From an uncultured Thermoleophilia bacterium (GTDB lineage Bacteria > Actinomycetota > Thermoleophilia > UBA2241), in assembly GCA_963777895.1 (NCBI GenBank), contig CAVZSF010000003.1, positions 205,832-269,831 of the forward strand: a DNA stretch of 64,000 nucleotides. Reading direction: 5' to 3'. Of the stretch, positions 1 to 60,025 are shown piece by piece (the first letter of the stretch is position 1; the number at the start of each line of letters is the position of its first letter). The notes under the pieces are model-generated. The model was not told the origin of the DNA, did not search any database, and was given only the letters and a program-made list of their open reading frames with translations. A program made the translations under genes and the position numbers.

Positions 1-373
1 TCAGGAGGTCGCCGGCGGTGAGGCCGCGGGCCAGCTCGAGGATGCGCGCGGCCGCCTCGCGGCCGCGCGCATCCGGCACGGGGTGCGCGGCCTCCACGAC
101 CTCGACACGCTCGCACGGCACGCCGTGGCCGTCGCGTGTCACGACGAGCCCTTCGAGCGAGTCCGCCCTCTGCCCCCAGCGGGCCGCCGCATCGAGCTCG
201 ACGGCGCGAGCCATCGCGGCGGCGGCCTTGCCTGCGCCGACGACGACGGCGCGCCCCGCGGGAGGCGGCGGCAGCCTGCCCGGCAGCAGCCGGGCCGGGT
301 CCGCCGCCGCCACCGCGGCGTCGAACAGCGCGCGCAGGAAGATGCGCGGCTCGGTCGCACTAACGCCGCGCAT
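1..373 (-). CDS. Glycerate 2-kinase (TtuD/GckA, MOFRL family), N-terminal part; runs off window edge
   Basis: Not in the ORF track. Manual translation from ATG 373 (alternative GTG 406): ..RIFLRALFDAAVAAADP..AVVVGAGKAAAAMARAVE..EGLVVTRDGH..EVVEAAHPVPDARG.. carries the GAGKAA and EAxHPxPD motifs. Confidence 0.88.
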   Translation of the reverse strand, partial: MRGVSATEPRIFLRALFDAAVAAADPARLLPGRLPPPPAGRAVVVGAGKAAAAMARAVELDAAARWGQRADSLEGLVVTRDGHGVPCERVEVVEAAHPVPDARGREAAARILELARGLTAGDLL

Positions 374-461
374 CTCATGCAGCGAGCCCCCGCCGAACCG
401 CCTCACTGGTCCCCCTGGCCGGGCGCCGTCACGCCGTCTGCTGCGGCCTTCCGCGGCACCG

Positions 462-3194
462 TCAGATCAGGCCGTGCAGCCGCTCCGTGAGCGCGTCGAA
501 CTCGCCGCCCTTGAAGCAGTAGCCGATCTCCGTGAACGGCGAACGCAGTCGCTCGACCTCGGCTTTCACGGCGCGGCCTTCGAGGATCACGGCCGCCATG
601 AGCTCGGCGGCCGCGGCGAAGTCCTGCGGTCCCATGCCGAAGCGCGTCAGCTCCGCCACACCGAGACGCAAGCCGCCGGCCGCCGTGAACCCTTCCTCGT
701 CGGGCGTCGCCTGATAGTTGCAGATGATGTTGTTGGCCTCGAGGAGCTCGGCGACCTCCGCGCCACGGCCGTACCCGACATCCACCACGACCTGGTGGGT
801 CTCGGTGAAGTCCACGGCCGGGTCGCCCTGCACGTCGAGCCCGGCGTCGTGCAGCGCCCGGGCGAATGCCTTGGCGTTGCCGATCACGGCCTGCTGGTAG
901 GCGTCCTTGAAGTGGTTCATCTCGTAGGCCGCCATGAGTAGGCCGAGCAGCGTCCCGAGGTGGTGGTTCGAGACTGACCCGGGGAAGGCGCGCCGCTCGA
1001 TCGCCTCCCAGAGATCCCAGCGCTCCTCGGGTTCCTGCCAGTTCCCGCCGATGAGGCCGCGCTGCGTGCCGAAGAAGGTCTTGTGCGTCGAGCCCGTGAC
1101 GATGTGGGCGCCCTCGGCGAACGGCTGCTGGAAGTAGGGGCCGACCAGGCCGAGGACGTGGGCCATGTCGTACATCAGGACGGCTCTGCTGCCCGTCTCG
1201 TCGAGGAAGCGCCGTACCTCCGCCACCGGCTCGCGATGAAGGACCATGCTCTTGCCCAGGATGATGAGCTCGGGGTCTTCTTTGGCGATCAGTTCGAGCA
1301 GGGCCGGCACGTCCGGCTTGTAGGGGTTGTCGGCAAGCACCGGGATGTCTTCCACGCCCGGCTGCTCGGTGCGCGGGTCGCGGGCGACGAAATCGCGCAG
1401 CGCCCCCATGGGCTGCGCGCTCAGGTGCCCGCCCTTGCCGATGTGATTGTTGATGACCTTGCGGATGCGCCGCGGCTCTGCCTTGCGGTCGGCGCGGTTC
1501 AGGTAGTCGACCAGTGCGCTGAAGACGGCGGCGTTGGCCATCTGGCCGCTGATGACGCGGGTCTCGACCTCGGCGCAGCCCAGGAAGGCCTTCAGTTCCT
1601 GCTGGAGGAGCCGTTCGACCTCATGGATGAACGAGGTGCCTTGATAGTAGAAGACCTCGAGGTCGTAGAAGGCTTCCGTCTTCTTGTGCTCCGCGTAGCG
1701 GAAGGCGGGGTCGCTGACGCTCAACAGGCGCACCGGCGGCGAGGCCGTCATCTCGGAGGGGATGAGGTCGAGCGACCGGGACTGGCGCCACTCGTGATTG
1801 GCGATGGCTCCTTCGACGAGGCGGAGGGCGAGCCGCTCCCGCCCGCCTTCGGGGAGTGGCGGCAGCTCGGGCTCGTGGTCCCAGACGATCGCCCGCGCGC
1901 ACGGTGGTGCATCGCTGCGCAGGTGGTACGGGACGACGAGGCCGGGGACGCGCTTGCCGCGCACGTCGACCTCGACCGCGTCGTCCTCGACGACCCGGCT
2001 GTCCACGTACGCCAGGGCGATCGAGCGCAGGTCGTGGTCCCCGGTCTGTGTCGAGCACAGACCCTCGCCCTCGAGGCCCCAGTAGGGGACCGCCGTGCCG
2101 CTCGTGACCCAGCCCACGTGCTCGTCACCGCGGTAGACCGGCGCGCCTTCCCGGGCGATGCCGCGTCCGGTGATGGCCACGGGACGGGTCATCTTCGGGA
2201 GGTCGTCGACCAGCGACCAGTCGCGGATCAAGATGCGTTCGTAGGCCGCATGCTGCCGTTCGAGCGCCGCGCGCCCGACGTAGTCCCCCTTACGCGGCGA
2301 GAAGCTGACCGCGAAGGAGGCCAGCGGGCAGCTCATGATGGGGATCTCGTGGCCGCCGGGATCCAGGCCGAGCTCGTGGCCGTACAGCGGCAGGCCCGCC
2401 TCGAGGCGCAGCGTGTCGCGGGCGCCCAGGCCGACGGGCAGGGCGCCCGCCGCGACGAGCGCGTCCCACAGGACCGGCGCGTCGGCTGAGGCGACGAAGA
2501 GCTCGAAGCAGAGCGGTTCGCCCGTATAGCCGGTGCGGCCGACCCGCACCTCGACGGCTCTGCTGTGGCCGTTGCCGCCGGCGTCGCCTCCGGCGCGGAC
2601 GGTCACGATACTGAGGCGATTGCGCAGGGGCTCGGGCAGGTCGCCGGCCTCGATGAGTCCGGCCAGGATCGCCCGAGCCTCCCTGCCCTGCAGCGCCAGC
2701 ATGGCGATGTCATACGTGCGGTCCTCGATGACGAAGCCGCCGGGCTCGGGTGTGCAGCCGAATGCCTCGCCCGGCCCCACCATCGTACCGCCGAAGCGCG
2801 CCACATACGTGCGGAGGTGCTCCCAGTCCTTCTCACGGTTCGAAGCGTTCACGACGAGCAGCCAGTCGTCCTCGCCGAAGCGATAGAGGTAGGCGTCGTC
2901 GACGGCGCCGCCGGTCTCGTTCGGGATGATGGTGTACTGCGCCTCGAGCGGGTCGAGAGCCTCACAGTTGCCCGTGAGCACGTGCTGCAGGAAGGGGACG
3001 GCCCCCTCGCCGTGCAGCACGAAGCGTCCCATGTGCGAGACGTCGAAGAGGCCCGCCGCCGACCGGGTCGCGAGGTGCTCGGCGATGATGCCGGTCGGGT
3101 ACTGCACCGGCATCTCCCAGCCGGCGAAGTCGACCAGCCTCGCGCCCAGCGCGTCGTGACGGTCGTGGAGCGGCGTCTTCAGCAGGGTGGTCAT
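462..3194 (-). CDS. Fusion of glycine-cleavage T protein (aminomethyltransferase) and serine hydroxymethyltransferase
   Basis: N-half has KTPLH, DFAGWEMPVQY, LFDVSHMG, RTGYTGE, GLGARDTLRLEAGLPLYGHEL (GcvT). C-half has LIPSE, DMAHVLGL, GSTHKTFFG (PLP Lys) and FPGSVSNHH (SHMT). One uninterrupted 910-aa ORF. Confidence 0.93.
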   Translation of the reverse strand: MTTLLKTPLHDRHDALGARLVDFAGWEMPVQYPTGIIAEHLATRSAAGLFDVSHMGRFVLHGEGAVPFLQHVLTGNCEALDPLEAQYTIIPNETGGAVDDAYLYRFGEDDWLLVVNASNREKDWEHLRTYVARFGGTMVGPGEAFGCTPEPGGFVIEDRTYDIAMLALQGREARAILAGLIEAGDLPEPLRNRLSIVTVRAGGDAGGNGHSRAVEVRVGRTGYTGEPLCFELFVASADAPVLWDALVAAGALPVGLGARDTLRLEAGLPLYGHELGLDPGGHEIPIMSCPLASFAVSFSPRKGDYVGRAALERQHAAYERILIRDWSLVDDLPKMTRPVAITGRGIAREGAPVYRGDEHVGWVTSGTAVPYWGLEGEGLCSTQTGDHDLRSIALAYVDSRVVEDDAVEVDVRGKRVPGLVVPYHLRSDAPPCARAIVWDHEPELPPLPEGGRERLALRLVEGAIANHEWRQSRSLDLIPSEMTASPPVRLLSVSDPAFRYAEHKKTEAFYDLEVFYYQGTSFIHEVERLLQQELKAFLGCAEVETRVISGQMANAAVFSALVDYLNRADRKAEPRRIRKVINNHIGKGGHLSAQPMGALRDFVARDPRTEQPGVEDIPVLADNPYKPDVPALLELIAKEDPELIILGKSMVLHREPVAEVRRFLDETGSRAVLMYDMAHVLGLVGPYFQQPFAEGAHIVTGSTHKTFFGTQRGLIGGNWQEPEERWDLWEAIERRAFPGSVSNHHLGTLLGLLMAAYEMNHFKDAYQQAVIGNAKAFARALHDAGLDVQGDPAVDFTETHQVVVDVGYGRGAEVAELLEANNIICNYQATPDEEGFTAAGGLRLGVAELTRFGMGPQDFAAAAELMAAVILEGRAVKAEVERLRSPFTEIGYCFKGGEFDALTERLHGLI

Positions 3195-3243
3195 CGTCGT
3201 CCTTCCGTCGCCGCCTGCGCCGCACCGGGACGCGTCGCGCCCC

Positions 3244-4455
3244 TCACGCCTCGGCCCAGGCCTTCAGCCCGCCGAGACCTTCCTCGATCCGTTCGACCGA
3301 GATGCCGGAGTACGCAAAGCGCGCGTAGCGGCGCGTCTCGCCAGGCAGTTCGCTGCCGAAGTGCAGGCGCGTGCAGAACGACACGCCGGTCTGCTCCAGG
3401 GCGTCTTTGCGCAGCTTGTCGTAGGTCGCGAAGCCCTTGCGCTCCATGACCTTGGTGAAGTCGGGGAAGAGGTAGAAGGTCGCCTCGGGCGAGTAGCAGG
3501 AGACGCCGCCGATGGCGTTCAGCCCGCGCACCGCGGCGTCACGCCGCTCGCGCAACGTGGCGAGTATCTGCTGCGCGCCGCTCTGGTCGCCGGTCAGCGC
3601 CTCGACGCCGGCCCACTGGATGAAGTGGCTGGTGCAGGACTCCTGGTTGACGTTCATGGTGGCGATCACCGAGATGAGGTCCTTCGGCCCGATCGCTCCG
3701 CCGAGGCGCCAGCCCGTCATGGCGAACTTCTTGCTGAAGGTGTAGAGGATGACGGTGCGCTCCTGCATGCCCGGGAGCGCTGCGATCGACGTGCTCTCTC
3801 CGGAGTAGCGGATGTCCCAATAGGCCTCGTCGCTGAGCACGTAAAGGTCGTGCTTCTGAGCAAGCTCAGCGAGCGCCTCTCGTTCGCTGTCGCGGCTCTC
3901 GGCGCCGGTCGGATTGTGGAGGTCGTTGAAGATGAGCAGCTTGGTGCGTGGCGTGATCGAGGCCTCGATGGCGTCGAAGTCGAGCAGGAAGTTGGTCTCG
4001 CCGGGCACGAAGCCGTAGGGCTTGGGCACACCGCCCAGGAAGTTGATCTGCGACTCGTAGATGGGGAAGCCGGGGTTCGGGTAGAGGACCTCGTCGCCGG
4101 GATCCATCAGGGCGAGCAGGAACTTGCTGATGACGGGCTTTCCGCCCGGTTGCACCGCGACGTTCTCGGGGCCGTACGGCAAGCCGTGCGTGGCCGCGAT
4201 CTCATCGGCGAGCGCCTGCCGCAGCTCCGGGATGCCGCCGTTCGGGCAGTAGCCGGTCTTGCCGTCGGCAATCGCGCGATCGGCGGCCTCGACGACGTTG
4301 TGCGGGGTGGCGAGGTCGATGTCGCCCAGATGGAAGGGGTACACCTTGTTGCCTCTGGCCGCCCAGGCGGCGCACTCCGCGCCTACCGCGAAGGCCGTCT
4401 CGGTGCCGAGACGTCCGACCCGTTCCGCGAACGGCAGCGTTCCGCTGGTCTTCAT
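3244..4455 (-). CDS. Class I/II PLP-dependent aminotransferase
   Basis: GYCPNGGIPELR, NDLHNPTG, SDEAY and TFSKKFAMTGWRLG motifs; GAGGAGG SD upstream. Confidence 0.92.
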   Translation of the reverse strand: MKTSGTLPFAERVGRLGTETAFAVGAECAAWAARGNKVYPFHLGDIDLATPHNVVEAADRAIADGKTGYCPNGGIPELRQALADEIAATHGLPYGPENVAVQPGGKPVISKFLLALMDPGDEVLYPNPGFPIYESQINFLGGVPKPYGFVPGETNFLLDFDAIEASITPRTKLLIFNDLHNPTGAESRDSEREALAELAQKHDLYVLSDEAYWDIRYSGESTSIAALPGMQERTVILYTFSKKFAMTGWRLGGAIGPKDLISVIATMNVNQESCTSHFIQWAGVEALTGDQSGAQQILATLRERRDAAVRGLNAIGGVSCYSPEATFYLFPDFTKVMERKGFATYDKLRKDALEQTGVSFCTRLHFGSELPGETRRYARFAYSGISVERIEEGLGGLKAWAEA

Positions 4456-4489
4456 GTGGTCCTCCTCGCCGGGCCCCTGTGCCCCTGTC

Positions 4490-5641
4490 TCACCCCGGCC
4501 CCGTCGTGGGAAGGCCGAGCTCCTTTGCGTTCACGATGCTGGGGGCTGCCTGCGGCGGCCGCTCCCCCAGGAAGGCGTCGATATCGTCGGGGTCGTCCCA
4601 GGCCGGCCAGCCCTGCAGTACGGCGGCGACGTTCGTGGCAGCCAGGGTCGCCATGCCCTCGCGCGTCCAGCTCGTGGCGGAGCCGAGGTGCGGGATGCTG
4701 ACCACGTTGGGCAGGTCGAGGAGGCCGGGCTCGACGGCGGGTTCGTTCTCGAACACGTCGAGCCCGGCCTTGAAATCCGGATGCGTCCGGGCGTGCTCCA
4801 CGAGTGCCTTCTCGTCGACGAGCGGGCCGCGGCTGGCGTTGACGAACACGCAGTGTGGCTTGGTCAGCGCCAGCCGCGGCCCGTCGATCAGGTGGTAGGT
4901 CTCCTCGGTGAGCACGCTGTGCACGCTGATCACGTCGGCCTCGCGCATGACCTCTTCGATGCTGCCCGCACGCCGCACCCGCACCGGTTCCTCGCCGTGC
5001 TCCTCGAGGAAGCGCGAGTAGTCCCTCATGTAGGTCTCGAGGGCCTCCTGGCGGTGGGGGTCGAAGTACAAGAGGTCCATCTTGTGGCCTTCGACCATCA
5101 TGCGCGCGTAGGCGGAGCCGATGCGGCCGGCGCCGATCACGCCGAGCGTGCGCCGCCAGAGAAGTTCGCCCTGGAAGAGCGTCGGCAGCCAGGCGTGATA
5201 CCTGCCTGCGGCGAGGAACTGGTGGGACTCGACGATGCGGCGTCCCGCCGCGAAGGTGAGGGCGACGGCGAGCTCGGCCGTCGTCTCGGTCAATACGCCG
5301 GGCGTGTTGCCGACGGCGATGCCGCCCGCCGTCGCCGCCGCGACGTCGACGTTGTTGTAGCCGACGGCGTAGTTGCTGTAGGCGACGCCGCCGGCGGCGC
5401 GCAGTGCGTCCAGCACCTCGGCGTCCCAGGCCTCGGTGAGCTGCCCTATGACGGCGTCGCACGACCCGCCGATCGCCTCGAGCAGCTCGCTCTTGCTCAG
5501 GATCGCCTCGGTCTGGCAGACCTCAACGCGGCAGTCCGCGTCGCGCAGCCGCTCGAGCCACAGCTCGCCCGGCAGCACCTTGGTCGCCAGCACCCGCCGG
5601 CTGCCGCCGGGATGCAGGATCTCGCACGCCATGCCGCCCAT
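4490..5641 (-). CDS. Hydroxypyruvate reductase / D-glycerate dehydrogenase, plant HPR1-like
   Basis: AVGYNNVD, GNTPGVLTETTAELA, GVIGAGRIG, NASRG, GLDVFENEP, PHLGSATSWTREGMATLAA; start 5641 or 5632. Confidence 0.92.
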   Translation of the reverse strand: MGGMACEILHPGGSRRVLATKVLPGELWLERLRDADCRVEVCQTEAILSKSELLEAIGGSCDAVIGQLTEAWDAEVLDALRAAGGVAYSNYAVGYNNVDVAAATAGGIAVGNTPGVLTETTAELAVALTFAAGRRIVESHQFLAAGRYHAWLPTLFQGELLWRRTLGVIGAGRIGSAYARMMVEGHKMDLLYFDPHRQEALETYMRDYSRFLEEHGEEPVRVRRAGSIEEVMREADVISVHSVLTEETYHLIDGPRLALTKPHCVFVNASRGPLVDEKALVEHARTHPDFKAGLDVFENEPAVEPGLLDLPNVVSIPHLGSATSWTREGMATLAATNVAAVLQGWPAWDDPDDIDAFLGERPPQAAPSIVNAKELGLPTTGPG

Positions 5642-5671
5642 CTCGCTCCGTTCATTCCCTTAAAACGCGCA

Positions 5672-5700
5672 GGACAGGGCGAGCTTCCCTCACCCTGTCC
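5672..5700 (-). terminator. Putative terminator/expression-platform hairpin of the glycine riboswitch
   Basis: Minus strand GGACAGGGTGAG-ggaag-CTCGCCCTGTCC (12-bp stem with one G-U) followed by TGCGCGTTTT. Confidence 0.55.
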
Positions 5701-5738
5701 CAGTACCGCGTTGGAGCGGCCGGTCCGGGGGCCCGTCC

Positions 5739-5850
5739 CGTCGCGATCCGTGAGCCTGAGAGTTTCGGCGGCCTGCCGGCCCCTTGCCCCTTCGGCGCCC
5801 GTCTCTCCGGCTGGTCACGGCTGCCGGCGACGGTCTCTCTCGCGACGTTC
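5739..5850 (-). promoter_or_regulatory. Glycine riboswitch (single aptamer)
   Basis: Minus strand GTCGCGAGAGAGACCG...CGCCGAAGGGGCAA...GAAACTCTCAGGC...TCGCGAC matches the glycine aptamer core; lies upstream of the gcvT-containing operon. Confidence 0.88.
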
Positions 5851-5886
5851 AGTCGGGCTTCCTCTGCGATGCAGTGCAGGCGGAAT

Positions 5887-6453
5887 CTAGCAGCGCCCCC
5901 CGCAACGGGCAACCGTCTTGCGCCGGACAGGCGTGGAGAGCGTCCACAGGGCGTAGCCGGCCAGCACTCCCAACGCGTTGAGCAGCACGTCGTCGGTTTC
6001 CACGTACCTGTACGGGAAGGCAGCCGCAGCCGAGAGGGCGAGCTGGCCAAGCTCGATGACGAGGCCGGTCGCGATGCCGGCGGCGACGGCGCGCGGCCAC
6101 GTCGCGGCGCGCGCCGTCGCCGCCGGCAGCAGGAACCCCAGGGGAACGAAGAGGAGGACGTTGCCGAGCAGGATGCGCAGACTCTCCCACTGGCCCACGC
6201 CTTGCACGAGCTCGTGGATCGACAGCAGCGGCACGAGCCTCACGTGGGTGATCAGGGCGCCGGCGCCCTCCGGAGGGATGGCATCCCCGCCGACCGGGAT
6301 CGGGAAGAACGCCTGTCCGGCCAGCCAGGTGAGGTAGCCGGCAAGGAGCAGGCGTGCCGCCAGGCGTGCGGCCGGGAGGGTCCGACGGCCCGACTGCCAG
6401 ATCCATACGACGACGAGGATGCCGGCCGGCGTCAAGCACCAGGCGGACAGCAC
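5887..6453 (-). CDS. VanZ family membrane protein
   Basis: Hydrophobic helices with LGNVLLFVPLG, IELGQ and ETDDVLLNALG motifs. Confidence 0.85.
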   Translation of the reverse strand: MLSAWCLTPAGILVVVWIWQSGRRTLPAARLAARLLLAGYLTWLAGQAFFPIPVGGDAIPPEGAGALITHVRLVPLLSIHELVQGVGQWESLRILLGNVLLFVPLGFLLPAATARAATWPRAVAAGIATGLVIELGQLALSAAAAFPYRYVETDDVLLNALGVLAGYALWTLSTPVRRKTVARCGGRC

Positions 6454-7938
6454 CTAGGCGACCTCTGCCGCGCCCGGTTCGGCGCCGCCCGACGGCGCGT
6501 CGGCTGCAGTCGCCATGGGGACGGGTCCGCCTGAGGATCTGCCCCCGGCCGCCGTCATGTCCGCCAGGATCGTCTCGAGTAGCGGGAGCAGGAGCTGCAC
6601 CCTGCTGTGACGTATGGCGACGTCCCACAGCGGCTCCATCTTCTTCCAGCCCGCGGTGTAGAGCAGGTGACGCAAGCGCGCCGCTGCCCCGTCCTTCGTC
6701 GCGGCCGCCGTCAGGATGGAGCGCCAGCTGTAGAAATCCCGATAGGCCCGTCGATAGCCGGCCTCGAGCTGGGAGGGTGACATGAGTGCGGGGCTAAAGA
6801 CGGCATGGCGTGTGTCGTAGCGGTCCCAGTCGTTCGTGAGCATCCGTCCTTCTGCCGTGAGGCGTCGCTCGAGAGCGGTGCCGGGGTACGGGGTCAGGAT
6901 GTGGAAGGTGGCCGTCTCCACCCCTTGCGCGACGGCCCACTCCGCCGTGCGGCCGAACACGGAGCGGTCGTCCTGGTCCATCCCGAAGACAAAGCTCGCG
7001 TTGACCATGACGCCGAGGTCGTGCATGCGCCGGATGGCGGCCTCGTACCGCAGGCGCGTGTCGCGCCCGCCGGCGTCGGTCGCGCGCTCGAGGTTCTGCA
7101 CCTTCCCGACGGAGCGTAGCCCTTCCGGCGAGAGCGTCTCGAACCCGACGAACAGGCTGCGGCAGCCAGCCTCGACCGCGCGCTCGAGCAGGCCCGGGCG
7201 GAGCACGCCTTCCACGGTCGCCGCCGCCTGCCAGACGCGGCCCATGCCACGCATGCCTTCGAAGAGTCGCGCGGCGAAGCGCGGGCTGCCGAACAGGTTG
7301 TCGTCGAGGAAGTAGAGGTGCCGGCCGGGGAGCCTTTCGACCTCGGTGAGGGCTTCGCGGAGCGGCTGCAGGTAGAAGGAGCTGCCGCCGGCGAAGAACG
7401 ACTCCTTGTAGCAGAACTCGCAGAGGTGGGGGCAGCCACGCGAGACCACGAGCGAGTTCGGCACCAGGTAGAGCCCGCGCTTGATCAGGTCGCGCCGTGG
7501 AGGGGGAGCACCGGCCAGACTGCGAGTGTGCGAGCGGTAGATGCGGCCGGGCGAGCGCGCCTTGAGATCGGCGAGAAAGCGCGGCCAGATGTCCTCCCCG
7601 GGTCCGACGAAGACGCTGTTCGCGTGTCTTGCGGCCTCGACGGGGAGGGCAGTCGGGTGGAGGCCGCCCAGACAGACGTGGGCGCCACGGTCGCGGTAGT
7701 GGACGGCGAGCGCGTAGGCACGCCGCGCCGAGGTGACGTACGCCTCGATGACGACGAGGTCGGGCTCGCGGTCGAGGGGCACGTCTTCGACGTGCTCGTC
7801 GCAGAGCTCCACCTCGTCGTCCGGGTCGAGGTAGGCGGCCAGCGTCGCCAGCCCGAGCGGCGGGAAGAGCGAGTACTTCAAGGGTCGCCGCGGGCCGGCT
7901 GCTGCCGATTCCCGGGGCAGGATCATGAGGACCTTCAT
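6454..7938 (-). CDS. Cobalamin-binding (class B) radical SAM protein
   Basis: True start MKVLMILP at 7938 (ATGA overlap with upstream stop); PPLGLATLAA, GGLHPT, SRGCPHLCEFC (CxxxCxxC), FLDDN, GFET, TPYPGT. Confidence 0.9.
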   Translation of the reverse strand: MKVLMILPRESAAAGPRRPLKYSLFPPLGLATLAAYLDPDDEVELCDEHVEDVPLDREPDLVVIEAYVTSARRAYALAVHYRDRGAHVCLGGLHPTALPVEAARHANSVFVGPGEDIWPRFLADLKARSPGRIYRSHTRSLAGAPPPRRDLIKRGLYLVPNSLVVSRGCPHLCEFCYKESFFAGGSSFYLQPLREALTEVERLPGRHLYFLDDNLFGSPRFAARLFEGMRGMGRVWQAAATVEGVLRPGLLERAVEAGCRSLFVGFETLSPEGLRSVGKVQNLERATDAGGRDTRLRYEAAIRRMHDLGVMVNASFVFGMDQDDRSVFGRTAEWAVAQGVETATFHILTPYPGTALERRLTAEGRMLTNDWDRYDTRHAVFSPALMSPSQLEAGYRRAYRDFYSWRSILTAAATKDGAAARLRHLLYTAGWKKMEPLWDVAIRHSRVQLLLPLLETILADMTAAGGRSSGGPVPMATAADAPSGGAEPGAAEVA

Positions 7939-8632
7939 CGCGAGCCCGGCGCGGGCCGCGGATCTCGGCCCCGGCGCGCGACGGCAGAGTCGAGGAGGGC
8001 CTCGAAACCCGCCGCGAAATCGTCCGGCCGGTCCCACTCCATGAGGCGCAGGCCGACGGCCCATGAGGCTCGGGTACTCGCCGCGATGGCCGGCGAGCTG
8101 CGCCACAACGGCGGCCTTCGGCACATCACGGGCGAGCAGCTGCGCGTAGCCCAAGCCGAGCGTGAACGCTCCCAGGGAGTGGTAGATGCGGGCGGCCTCG
8201 TCAGCAGTAAAGCCCCCCTCGAGCAGGGCACGCATCAGCGCGTCCATCCAGCGCCGCCCGTTCGGCGTGCGGATGGCCGCGGTGGCGATCAGCGGCAGCG
8301 CCCGGGGGTGACGCAGGGTGGCCTCGTGGAGGCCGGCGAACAGGAACGAGGTCCGTTCGCGCCAGCGCTCTTCGTGTCCCGGAAGCCGAAGGGCCTCTCC
8401 GGCGATGGCGTCGGCCACGGCGTCGAGCAGGGCGCGCTTGGAGCGGGAAGTGGTGGTAGAGGCTCATCGGCTTCACGCCAGCATCCGCCGCCAAGCGGCG
8501 CATGTTGAGGCCCTCGAGGCCGTCCGCGTCTATGATCGCCAGGGCGAGTTCGACGACGCGCGGTCCCGAGAGGGGGACCCTCGCGTCGCGGGCCGCCCCG
8601 CTATCGGATCCTCCTGCGCGCAACACCCCCAC
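7935..8632 (-). pseudogene. TetR/AcrR family regulator with TetR_C domain, split by two +1 frameshifts (~8445 and ~8060); possibly intact in vivo
   Basis: HTH (..ALAIIDADGLEGLNMRRLAADAGVKPMSLYHHF), middle (..DAVADAIAGEAL..EGGFTADEAARIY..) and C-terminus (..FAAGFEALLDS) lie in three frames; AGGAGG SD before GTG 8632. Confidence 0.8.
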
Positions 8633-8646
8633 ACGTCCCTCCTGAC

Positions 8647-8674
8647 CGTACAAAGTACGCCTTACAAAGTAAGG
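8647..8674. promoter_or_regulatory. Two abutting palindromic operators, probable TetR autoregulatory sites
   Basis: CGTAC-AAA-GTACG (8647-8659) and CCTTAC-AAA-GTAAGG (8660-8674), AT-rich, immediately upstream of the TetR SD. Confidence 0.7.
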
Positions 8675-8789
8675 ATACTGGCGACGCGCAAGGCCTGTCA
8701 ACGTGTGACGCTTCGGGGCTGCCCCTGTCGCTGTCTACCCAGGCGTATGATGACGATAGGAGAGGTCGGAGCGGCCCAGAGGAGGATCC

Positions 8790-9338: not shown

Positions 9339-10391
9339 ATGAGTGAGAACACCGACACCACGAAGGGGCCGGCCGGCGAAGCTGCGCCGGCCCGCCGCCC
9401 GCGTGTCTTCAGTGGCACCCAGCCGAGCGGCACCCTGCACCTCGGCAACTACCTCGGCGCGATCCGCAACTACGTCGCCATGCAGGAGACGCACGACTGC
9501 GTCTACTGCGTGGTCGACCTGCACGCCATCACCGTCCGTCAGCAGCGCGCCGAGCTGCGCCGCAGCACGATGGACGTGGCCAACGCGTACCTGGCGGCCG
9601 GTCTCGACCCGGAGCGCTCGATCATCATCGTCCAGTCGCACGTGCCGCAGCACAGCGAGCTCGCGTGGATCCTCAATACCATCACGTACATGGGCGAACT
9701 GCGGCGCATGACGCAGTTCAAGGACAAGACGGCGGGTGCCGAGGGCGAGAGCATCGGGGTCGGCCTCTTCGACTACCCGGTGCTGATGGCTGCCGACATC
9801 CTGCTGTACCGCGCCGACGCCGTGCCGGTGGGCGAGGACCAGAAGCAGCACGTCGAGCTGACGCGCGACCTGGCGGAGCGCTTCAACAACGCGTTCGGCA
9901 AGACGTTCGTCGTGCCCGAACCGATCATCCGGACGGAGGGCGGGCGTGTCATGGCGCTCGACGACCCGGCGAAGAAGATGAGCAAGAGCGCCGGGTCCGA
10001 GGCGAGCTACATCGCGCTGGCCGACCCGCCGGACACGATCCGCCGCAAGATCAAGCGCGCCGTCACCGATTCGGGTGCCGAGGTCAGGCCAGGTCCCGAC
10101 AAGCCCGCCCTGAGCAACCTGCTCGAGATCTACAGGATCTTCAGCGGCGAGACCGAGCAGGCCCTTGTCGAGCGCTACGCCGGCCAGGGTTATGCCGACT
10201 TCAAGGCCGATCTCGCCGACGTCGTCGTGGATGCGCTGGCGCCGCTGCAGACGCGCATCCGCGAGCTCGAGGCCGACAAGGGGTACGTTCTCGGCGTCCT
10301 CAAGGACGGCGCCGAGCGCGCCGAGGCGATCGCGTCCCGTACCATGCAGCGCGTGCGCGAACGCGTCGGATTGGTGCCGAGGCCCGAGTAG
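9339..10391 (+). CDS. trpS: Tryptophan--tRNA ligase
   Basis: SGTQPSG, HLGN (HIGH), YPVLMAADIL, VPVGEDQKQH, KMSKS. Confidence 0.97.
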   Translation: MSENTDTTKGPAGEAAPARRPRVFSGTQPSGTLHLGNYLGAIRNYVAMQETHDCVYCVVDLHAITVRQQRAELRRSTMDVANAYLAAGLDPERSIIIVQSHVPQHSELAWILNTITYMGELRRMTQFKDKTAGAEGESIGVGLFDYPVLMAADILLYRADAVPVGEDQKQHVELTRDLAERFNNAFGKTFVVPEPIIRTEGGRVMALDDPAKKMSKSAGSEASYIALADPPDTIRRKIKRAVTDSGAEVRPGPDKPALSNLLEIYRIFSGETEQALVERYAGQGYADFKADLADVVVDALAPLQTRIRELEADKGYVLGVLKDGAERAEAIASRTMQRVRERVGLVPRPE

Positions 10392-10618
10392 TCGGCGGCC
10401 ACCCGCCCCCCAGCGCGGCCATCAGAGCGACCATCACGTAGGGACTCCCCTGCGCCACTACTGAGTTCCGTCACGGCCGCCGCGCATCACCGTCACGCCG
10501 AGACGGGTAGAAGCGGGCTAGCCTGGCCGAGGGTCGGGCGCATCGGCGGAGACCGGCGTGCGTGAGGGACCAGCGCAGGTCGAAGCCGGCTCGCAGGCCG
10601 AAGCGAAAGGGGTGACGT

Positions 10619-19115: not shown

Positions 19116-19191
19116 TGGTGGAGCATAGCGGAATCGAACCGCTGACCTCCTGGGTGCGATCCAGGCGCTCTCCCAGCTGAGCTAATGCCCC
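19116..19191 (-). tRNA. tRNA-Ala (CGC)
   Basis: GGGGCATTAGCTCAGCTGGGAGAGCGCCTGGATCGCACCCAGGAGGTCAGCGGTTCGATTCCGCTATGCTCCACCA: 76 nt, G3:U70, anticodon CGC, encoded CCA. Confidence 0.97.
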
Positions 19192-59790: not shown

Positions 59791-59850
59791 GGTCGAACAC
59801 TCGGGGAGCGAGTACCCATCCTCGTGGGAAGCAGCTTCGCAGGCGGCTCA

Positions 59851-60025
59851 GCAGGTTTTCTGGCTCCCGGTCGTACTGCACGCGCCCCTGCTGCCTTCCC
59901 GGACCCGCGGGTCCAGTGACTCTCCTAAAGGAGAACGCAGAGGCGGCGACCGGTCACAGCGGCGGGACCGCGCCGGATTCACACCGGCTTCCCTAGAGGG
60001 CACTAGCCGCGCGCCATCTCATTGA
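59851..60025 (-). promoter_or_regulatory. Cobalamin riboswitch
   Basis: Minus strand AGGGAAGCCGGTGTGAATCCGGCGCGGTCCCGCCGCTGTGA...CACTGG..CCGGGAAGG...GAGCCAGAAAACCTGC (B12 box). Confidence 0.93.

Follow-up and report, generated by a model that had tools for sequence, protein, structure and literature searches.

The subject of this study is an operon at the left end of a 64-kb stretch of DNA (64,000 nucleotides (nt), hereafter the window) from an uncultured Thermoleophilia bacterium of the GTDB lineage UBA2241. The window corresponds to positions 205,832 to 269,831 of contig CAVZSF010000003.1 in assembly GCA_963777895.1 (G000:C3:205832-269831 in our numbering, where G000 is the source genome); the assembly comprises 7 contigs and 3.2 Mb, with a completeness of 95.5%. 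On the minus strand, to which all window coordinates of operon features below refer, the operon carries a glycine riboswitch, a D-2-hydroxyacid dehydrogenase, a class I aminotransferase, a fusion of the aminomethyltransferase GcvT with serine hydroxymethyltransferase (SHMT), and a MOFRL glycerate 2-kinase. A sequence-only reading of this DNA had listed the same five elements, co-oriented and with short gaps, and all were present, in an order that is their order along the minus strand. The gaps along the four open reading frames (ORFs) measured 34, 49 and 55 nt, the last of which, between the fusion and the kinase, becomes 88 nt if the first ATG is taken as the kinase start. We judged protein families by Pfam, by NCBIfam curated models with their cut-offs, and by the best-matching solved structures, and on these measures the gene functions proposed earlier held at the family level.

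Enzymes encoded by the operon

The fusion gene (462–3194) encodes 910 amino acids, in which GCV_T, GCV_T_C and SHMT domains were read in one frame without a stop. Its GcvT half (residues 1 to about 440; 1875–3194; GCV_T and GCV_T_C) scored 238.2 bits on GCV_T and passed both NF001567 (301.4 bits; cut-off 300) and TIGR00528 (239.2 bits; cut-off 235.85), and residues 4–384 aligned with Bacillus subtilis 1yx2, relative to which this half carries insertions. The SHMT half (residues about 456–910; 462–1829) was of the archaeal type. It passed PF00464 (115.3 bits against 27) and stayed under the cut-off of PRK00011 (NF000586; 238.2 bits against 335), and its best structural match was 4uqv/4bhd, the SHMT of Methanocaldococcus jannaschii, at 171 bits, as opposed to about 90 bits for other, bacterial and eukaryotic, SHMTs. 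Residues 463–898 aligned to positions 14–421 of 4uqv, the motifs SE(M), STHKTFFG and FPG.VSNHHL were kept, and the T-H-K-T motif of the pyridoxal phosphate (PLP) lysine matched the STHKTFFG of 4uqv. Each half thus aligned end to end with its free-standing counterparts (GcvT structures 1yx2, 1woo and 3a8i; archaeal SHMT 4uqv/4bhd) with its motifs intact, the difference being that here the two are joined in one chain. Relatives of the fusion that share at least 67% identity fall into over 120 clusters, for which naming sources give only 'aminomethyltransferase' or 'GcvT'. A literature search, with most subscription journals outside its coverage, returned no paper on Thermoleophilia with the reductive glycine pathway; among the papers listed, none concerned a GcvT–SHMT fusion by title or abstract, and none of the 15 listed out of 130 matches mentioned a glycine riboswitch, so that an operon of this kind did not turn up either. 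The fusion is apparently unpublished, and the operon appears to build known chemistry around an uncharacterised fused enzyme.

Within G000, the fusion was the only match to PF00464 (SHMT) and the only match to PF01571 (GCV_T). Furthermore, it was the sole SHMT match in 12 of 41 genomes of the window's family, including G019, which is assembled in one contig at 98% completeness, and G007; a canonical glyA was found besides the fusion in about 28 of the 41. These counts provide indirect evidence that the fusion can serve as the cell's SHMT.

The dehydrogenase (4490–5641; 383 amino acids) contains 2-Hacid_dh_C (140.6 bits) and 2-Hacid_dh domains and reached family membership only at the level of the D-2-hydroxyacid dehydrogenase superfamily. 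Its top NCBIfam model was glyoxylate reductase PRK13243 (227.6 bits, under the cut-off of 455), and it scored 178.8 bits on the GhrB model (under the cut-off of 492) and 182.6 bits on the phosphoglycerate dehydrogenase (PGDH) model. The best structures were glyoxylate reductase/glycerate dehydrogenases of Pyrococcus and Thermus (6bii, 196 bits; 2cuk, 183.5 bits; 2dbq, 182 bits), followed by human glyoxylate/hydroxypyruvate reductase (GRHPR) at 128 bits and a PGDH structure at 122 bits. By these comparisons, the enzyme is nearer to the GRHPR type than to phosphoglycerate, lactate or formate dehydrogenases. GRHPR-family enzymes commonly take both glyoxylate and hydroxypyruvate.

The aminotransferase (3244–4455; 403 amino acids) is a class I, PLP-dependent enzyme resembling class Ib aspartate aminotransferases, and we regard it as a putative serine:2-oxoacid aminotransferase. 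It scored 177.5 bits on Aminotran_1_2 and lay under every NCBIfam equivalog cut-off (PRK06107, 234 bits against 617), and its best sequence matches were class Ib aspartate/prephenate aminotransferases (Thermus 1bjw and Phormidium 1j32, both aspartate aminotransferases, at about 211–214 bits; Rhizobium 6f77). In the alignment with the Thermus enzyme, the PLP lysine K242, the Asp/Tyr pair, the Asn-Pro-Thr-Gly stretch, the lysine K106 of the GGK motif and the C-terminal Arg motif were all kept; in the Thermus enzyme, that GGK lysine binds a distal carboxylate. A Phe stands opposite Thermus Trp W125, and the C-terminal 65 residues fell outside the structure alignments. The enzyme differs from its class Ib relatives in this lack of an equivalog assignment, in reading PGF where they read PYW, and in its genomic partner, the GcvT–SHMT fusion. 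It also falls outside class V (Aminotran_5), to which serine–glyoxylate aminotransferase (SGAT; EC 2.6.1.45, AGXT family) belongs; judged by its sequence, it could at most work like an SGAT and would not be a member of that family. Activity on serine and hydroxypyruvate is a putative property, and the aminotransferase is the weakest link of the pathway set out below.

The sequence-only reading had suggested that this class I/II enzyme replaces the usual class V aminotransferase, a view weakened by the fact that G000 also has an AGXT/BhcA-like gene of class V, immediately preceding a true serA (G000:C7:122789-125823; L089:2790-5824). The top model of the class V protein was the aspartate–glyoxylate aminotransferase BhcA (334 bits, under the cut-off), and the adjoining SerA scored 595.9 bits, over its cut-off. 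The class V gene may encode a phosphoserine aminotransferase, or a serine/glyoxylate enzyme that rivals the class I enzyme for that role.

Only the 5′ part of the kinase gene (1–406; DUF4147) lies in the window, where the gene runs off the left end, and this fragment scored far under the cut-off of the archaeal equivalog NF041176. The full gene (G000:C3:204816-206237, minus strand) encodes 474 amino acids with DUF4147 (280.8 bits) and MOFRL (127.3 bits) domains, and its best structures were 2b8n (237 bits) and 1x3l (233 bits). According to PMC2063504, class II kinases of the MOFRL type form 2-phosphoglycerate; the kinases that act in the serine cycle of Methylobacterium and Hyphomicrobium belong to them, as does the animal type. 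A second MOFRL kinase paralog, 33% identical to the operon kinase, lies directly upstream of enolase (G000:C1:65867-68591; L090:3868-6592).

Two glycine riboswitches in one genome

The riboswitch at the head of the operon (5734–5852) is a single aptamer that matched Rfam family RF00504 at 52.9 bits, compared with a gathering score of 32 (E 4.8e-8 over the whole window); no second aptamer was seen even at E ≤ 10. Another member of RF00504 (48.5 bits) lies at G000:C6:96326-96431, upstream of gcvH, and these two were the only RF00504 matches in G000. The second copy heads gcvH, gcvPA, gcvPB, lpd (TIGR01350, 477 bits, over the cut-off) and lipA, and its leader shares one common architecture with the window leader, so that the two operons form a two-riboswitch regulon. 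The sequence-only reading had named gcvP/H/L, fhs and folD as genes to look for, and all were located: gcvH, gcvPA/gcvPB and lpd, with lipA, in this second riboswitch operon, and fhs and folD in a cluster with fchA (G000:C4:309884-315886; L086:5884-11886). Next in line stands a gene for a NuoF-like FMN/Fe-S protein that also has ferredoxin domains, an order that resembles the start of acetogen methyl-branch clusters. As a test for an acetogen-like methyl branch, we looked for metF and metV behind the NuoF-like gene and found neither there, the positions being occupied by two AsnC-type regulators.

We aligned 27 leaders, including the window leader and the gcvH leader of G000, and observed in all a common order of aptamer, conserved linker, a stretch variable in length and sequence, and a hairpin. 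Compensatory changes on both sides occurred at 12 of 44 predicted pairs, mainly in the aptamer stems P1 and P2; in P1, for example, columns 36/166 showed nine and columns 41/160 ten such changes. A 5′ segment beginning GAGGAAGCCCGAC (5853–5878) was kept throughout the alignment, and RNAalifold paired it, with little covariation, with the linker that follows the aptamer. By analogy with PMC5066625, this P0-like pairing may form a kink-turn.

Downstream of the aptamer, a putative ghost-aptamer stem-loop with a variable loop was recognised at 5699–5731, reading CCCGG ... CUGGG in the window and CCCUG ... CAGGG in most relatives. Its five pairs could form in 24 of 27 leaders. In the other three, those of the window, L023 and L032, a C–A mismatch falls in the usual register, and all three have a shifted register in common as an alternative. 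Apart from this, the pairs were invariant. RNAfold of the window leader further predicted a terminator-like alternative stem at 5662–5701, the hairpin GGGACAGGGUGAG..CUCGCCCUGUCC followed by UGCGCGUUUU, whose 5′ arm overlaps the ghost stem. Across the alignment, the downstream hairpin (GGACAGGG...CCCUGUCC) was nearly invariant in 27 of 27 leaders, with one-sided changes only, and was followed by a U-containing tail and, in most loci, then a ribosome-binding site. The CCCUG strand of the ghost stem belongs to the linker, and its CAGGG partner forms the middle of the 5′ arm of the hairpin. As these pairs are invariant, the alignment speaks neither for nor against them; with no compensatory changes in ghost stem or hairpin, the sign of the switch rests on analogy.

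The architecture resembles that of type-1 singlet glycine riboswitches, which, as set out in PMC5066625, combine the RF00504 aptamer with a ghost-aptamer stem with a variable loop and an alternative stem-loop; all type-1 singlets are predicted there to be ON switches. The operon leader may act through termination or translation, and we think it quite likely that glycine turns the operon on, chiefly in view of the glycine cleavage genes, which stand under the same leader. In described cases, glycine-cleavage operons under a glycine riboswitch are ON-regulated, and the glycine-riboswitch operon of B. subtilis is gcvT-gcvPA-gcvPB. The second copy in G000 likewise controls gcvH, gcvP and the L-protein gene; the set controlled in the window differs in reaching past serine to a glycolysis-entry kinase and in including the cell's only SHMT.

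Conservation and genomic neighbourhood

To place the operon in a wider context, we used the best 80 of 288 confirmed fusion-encoding stretches in species-representative genomes as comparison loci (L numbers). Carriers among the 288 spanned Actinomycetota, Desulfobacterota, Chloroflexota and others; the 80 loci divided into 37 from Actinomycetota/Thermoleophilia (hereafter actinobacterial) and 43 others, mostly from Desulfobacterales, together with Deferrisomatales, Anaerolineales, Caldilineaceae, Acidobacteriota and Planctomycetales. In the fetched loci, riboswitch presence was judged by a motif scan for the aptamer core. The core stood at the operon head in 32 of the 37 actinobacterial loci, and the aminotransferase lay directly upstream of the fusion in 31, one of the six misses (L008) having only 376 nt of upstream sequence. 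The synteny of riboswitch, aminotransferase and fusion, which the sequence-only reading had asked to be checked, was conserved: this core recurred in 31 of the 37 loci, and with the riboswitch at the operon head in 32 of them, the arrangement is more than chance. The other genes were more sporadic: 10 of the 37 loci have the dehydrogenase and 9 the kinase.

Outside Actinomycetota, the motif scan found the riboswitch in none of the 43 loci and an Rfam search in none of the nine searched among them. The aminotransferase was near the fusion in three of the 43 (L046, L061 and L073; 62–66% identity). In this group the fusion often has glycine cleavage genes as neighbours: gcvH, gcvPA and gcvPB in L054, L064 and L046, and, following the fusion, gcvP in L040 and gcvH in L073; this position beside gcvH/gcvP in Desulfobacterales and other phyla argues that the fusion serves as T-protein. 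An AP_endonuc_2 gene behind the fusion in L046 was considered as a lead to a hydroxypyruvate isomerase and rejected, being deoxyribonuclease IV (nfo) by NCBIfam. In the Planctomycetales locus L073, a restriction-modification pair on one side and the aminotransferase gene on the other flank two Acido-Lenti-1 RNA matches, one on each strand, at 10247-10452.

At the class level, we compared 151 genomes, calling aminotransferase orthologs at E ≤ 1e-90 and dehydrogenase and kinase orthologs at E ≤ 1e-80. Fusion-type matches occurred in about 31 of the 151, in the window's family and one other, and about 80 further genomes matched the GcvT half only. Aminotransferase orthologs were found in 22 genomes, all of the window's family, and 19 of the 22 adjoin the fusion. 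Dehydrogenase orthologs were present in 21 genomes, 10 of them next to the aminotransferase–fusion pair, and kinase orthologs in 29. In G004, G031, G115, G121 and G145, the dehydrogenase and kinase orthologs stand side by side away from the fusion; the two genes are thus a conserved couple, which some genomes have incorporated into the operon, and this pairing in other genomes points, by genomic context, to glycerate as the product of the dehydrogenase. The motif scan detected no riboswitch at the dehydrogenase orthologs outside the operon (L096–L100) or at the kinase loci L091–L095. Neighbours of these outside copies included a PALP enzyme, a histidine kinase, EamA and DUF6951, and gave no clear link.

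The operon apparently continues beyond the kinase, left of the window, with a hydrolase and two EamA genes, up to the divergent gyrA (G000:C3:201128-204803; L003:9126-12804; minus strand). The Amidohydro_3 hydrolase (523 amino acids) begins 9 nt past the kinase stop and is D-aminoacylase-like, its best structures being the D-aminoacylases 1m7j (277 bits) and 9g5m, at about 280 bits; the two EamA transporters are paralogous. The hydrolase was present in five and an EamA gene in six of the 37 actinobacterial loci: the hydrolase–EamA tail also stands behind the fusion in L014, L015, L017, L019 and L033, and L016 has the EamA gene alone. As pure speculation, the tail might serve to take up an N-acyl amino acid, perhaps N-acylglycine, and hydrolyse it.

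On the upstream side, a gene for a VanZ-like membrane protein (5887–6453, minus strand) ends 35 nt before the aptamer, which places the operon promoter inside or just past the 3′ end of this gene, unless the operon is transcribed by read-through from upstream. A simple promoter and terminator scan across the operon gave no promoter-like site, such a scan being uninformative for a high-G+C actinobacterium; it reported one terminator-like site, on the opposite strand, and did not flag the leader hairpin. A search of sequencing runs turned up no RNA run as a carrier and DNA runs with small shares only, 0.17 at most. Further upstream, a TetR-family gene looks broken (6454–8701, minus strand): the ORF at 8701–8201 opens like a TetR helix–turn–helix domain and, by eye, becomes arginine-rich after 'YHHFP', and the 654-codon ORF at 8418–6454 (minus strand) begins with a TetR_C domain and continues as a B12-binding radical SAM protein. 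This break suggests indel errors more widely in the assembly. Elsewhere in the window, the Rfam scan identified a cobalamin riboswitch (59832–60022, minus strand, 80.6 bits) and a tRNA gene (19119–19191, minus strand), both unrelated to the operon.

Candidate route from glycine to 2-phosphoglycerate

The best reading of these data, which we consider probable, is that the operon serves the glycine-induced disposal or assimilation of glycine by way of serine, hydroxypyruvate and glycerate to 2-phosphoglycerate. Gene identities, synteny and the two-riboswitch regulon are observed; the substrates of the enzymes, the way in which flux runs and the sign of the switch are inferred. At high glycine, the leader, as a type-1 singlet of presumed ON sign, would let transcription or translation proceed, and the second copy of the leader would turn on gcvH-gcvPA-gcvPB-lpd-lipA. 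The P, H and L proteins would then deliver the aminomethyl group to the fusion, whose GcvT half would form 5,10-methylene-tetrahydrofolate (methylene-THF), with which the SHMT half would convert a second glycine into serine; the THF cycle would thereby be closed on one polypeptide, possibly with channelling. The class I aminotransferase would convert serine into hydroxypyruvate, with 2-oxoglutarate or oxaloacetate as the probable acceptor, the GRHPR-type dehydrogenase would reduce hydroxypyruvate to D-glycerate, and the MOFRL kinase would phosphorylate D-glycerate to 2-phosphoglycerate, which enolase would take up. We favour this route because of the two-riboswitch regulon, the repeated recruitment of dehydrogenase and kinase around the aminotransferase–fusion pair, and the lack of a usual serine dehydratase, the SDH_alpha iron-sulfur enzyme not having been found in G000.

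Several observations weigh against the route. The dehydrogenase is missing from 27 and the kinase from 28 of the 37 actinobacterial operons; five of the 21 genomes with a dehydrogenase ortholog have no fusion match; and G025 and G079, from the window's own genus, possess aminotransferase and fusion with no dehydrogenase or kinase ortholog at the threshold used. The nearest relatives of the aminotransferase are aspartate aminotransferases, whose GGK lysine it retains, and the ghost stem and downstream hairpin lack compensatory changes in all 27 leaders. The reading frames of the second riboswitch operon are interrupted once in gcvPA and twice in gcvPB (G000:C6:92700-95650; L087:3781-6650; minus strand); every break looks as if one base had been inserted outside a homopolymer, and the breaks are either assembly errors or marks of pseudogenes. 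An intact second gcvPB-like gene, 33–49% identical, lies 27 kb away (G000:C6:66161-68269), and no second gcvPA was found in G000. Finally, as the fusion is the sole SHMT and GcvT match of the genome, an ON switch would gate a housekeeping enzyme by its own product, an odd form of control. The same fact makes the label of a 'dedicated' glycine assimilation module, as given in the sequence-only reading, doubtful, and it leaves unexplained how the supply of glycine and one-carbon units starts at low glycine. Candidates for this start are basal read-through, formate brought in by fhs, and the class V aminotransferase as a source of glycine.

Some of these points would fit a different arrangement, in which the conserved core tunes the balance of serine, glycine and one-carbon units as a housekeeping node, an aspartate/glutamate-type aminotransferase redistributes nitrogen, and dehydrogenase and kinase are an independent glycerate module inserted by chance, with no dedicated linear route. 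The fusion's standing as sole SHMT in G000 and in 12 of 41 family genomes, the absence of dehydrogenase and kinase from most operons, the existence of dehydrogenase orthologs without the fusion, and the class Ib likeness of the aminotransferase all agree with it. However, G000 encodes other class I aminotransferases, orthologs of the operon enzyme are confined to the fusion-bearing family and mostly stand beside the fusion (and near it in three other phyla), and dehydrogenase and kinase were recruited repeatedly to flank exactly this pair. We therefore rate the housekeeping arrangement as unlikely. Some of the same evidence bears on the sign of the switch. If glycine repressed the operon, whose role would then be to make glycine and one-carbon units from serine, control of the only SHMT would be ordinary end-product feedback, and the aptamer and downstream hairpin can indeed coexist in the energy-based consensus fold of the 27 leaders. 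Against such an OFF switch stand the shared leader at gcvH-gcvP-lpd, the head of a type of operon that is ON-regulated where described, the prediction of ON for all type-1 singlets cited above, and the glycerate kinase, which would be senseless in a glycine-forming route; an OFF switch is on balance quite improbable.

The remaining alternatives concern the substrates. The aminotransferase could make glyoxylate from glycine (as a glycine:2-oxoglutarate enzyme) and the dehydrogenase glycolate from glyoxylate, giving a second glycine detoxification arm beside the glycine cleavage system and SHMT, with the kinase serving other glycerate. The best NCBIfam model and structures of the dehydrogenase are named glyoxylate reductase, and the aminotransferase keeps the lysine associated with dicarboxylate partners. 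Such a branch nevertheless seems improbable to us: the pairing of the dehydrogenase with a glycerate kinase in at least five genomes outside the operon points to glycerate rather than glycolate, enzymes of the GRHPR family commonly accept both substrates, and glycolate would be a dead end (glycolate oxidase and malate synthase were not searched for). It is highly improbable that serine is instead phosphorylated, the aminotransferase acting as phosphoserine aminotransferase and the dehydrogenase as PGDH run backwards to 3-phosphoglycerate. The score of the dehydrogenase on the PGDH model would allow this; however, the operon contains no DUF1015 or other serine kinase, its kinase being the MOFRL glycerate kinase, a true SerA is encoded elsewhere in G000, and the structures place GRHPR-type enzymes well above PGDH.

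Returning to the route through free serine and glycerate, we compared it with known systems. The sequence-only reading had likened it to the salvage arm of the plant photorespiratory C2 cycle (GDC, SHMT, SGAT, HPR1, GLYK). The order of intermediates, glycine, serine, hydroxypyruvate and glycerate, is the same; the likeness fails at the kinase, since the plant GLYK is an unrelated class III enzyme that forms 3-phosphoglycerate according to PMC2063504. The plant route also has neither the fusion nor the riboswitch. A closer counterpart of the operon than the plant cycle is the entry arm of the methylotroph serine cycle (GlyA, Sga, HprA and GckA of Methylobacterium and Hyphomicrobium). The four chemical steps from glycine and methylene-THF to 2-phosphoglycerate are alike, the dehydrogenase is of the D-2-hydroxyacid family, and the kinase is of the same MOFRL class II forming 2-phosphoglycerate (PMC2063504). 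The differences are that methylene-THF would stem from glycine cleavage in the operon and stems from C1 oxidation in the serine cycle, and that the operon has an archaeal-type SHMT fused to GcvT, a class I instead of a class V aminotransferase, and control by a glycine riboswitch. Plant SGAT, too, is a class V aminotransferase.

The suggestion that the operon forms a glycerate exit from the reductive glycine pathway gained no specific support beyond the presence of fhs, fchA and folD. A bolder version of it, which we regard as a long shot, would have aminotransferase and fusion form a transferable two-gene metabolon that turns two glycines into hydroxypyruvate and lets neither methylene-THF nor serine escape. 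Combined with fhs-fchA-folD and a glycine cleavage system able to run in reverse, this would be the natural exit of a reductive glycine pathway from formate and CO2 through glycine, serine and glycerate to 2-phosphoglycerate, with glycerate in place of a serine deaminase, and in lineages that have lost glyA the whole serine, glycine and one-carbon node would be gated by one glycine-sensing RNA.

If the favoured route is correct, Thermoleophilia of soil and sediment would turn glycine into a glycolytic intermediate by a compact path that needs no serine deaminase. Efforts to engineer reductive-glycine and formate-assimilation pathways look for parts like the GcvT–SHMT fusion, in which one protein couples glycine cleavage or synthesis to serine formation. 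Annotation pipelines that label the fusion as GcvT will report such genomes as lacking glyA. For the organism itself, a riboswitch that gates its only SHMT raises the testable question of how glycine homeostasis starts up.

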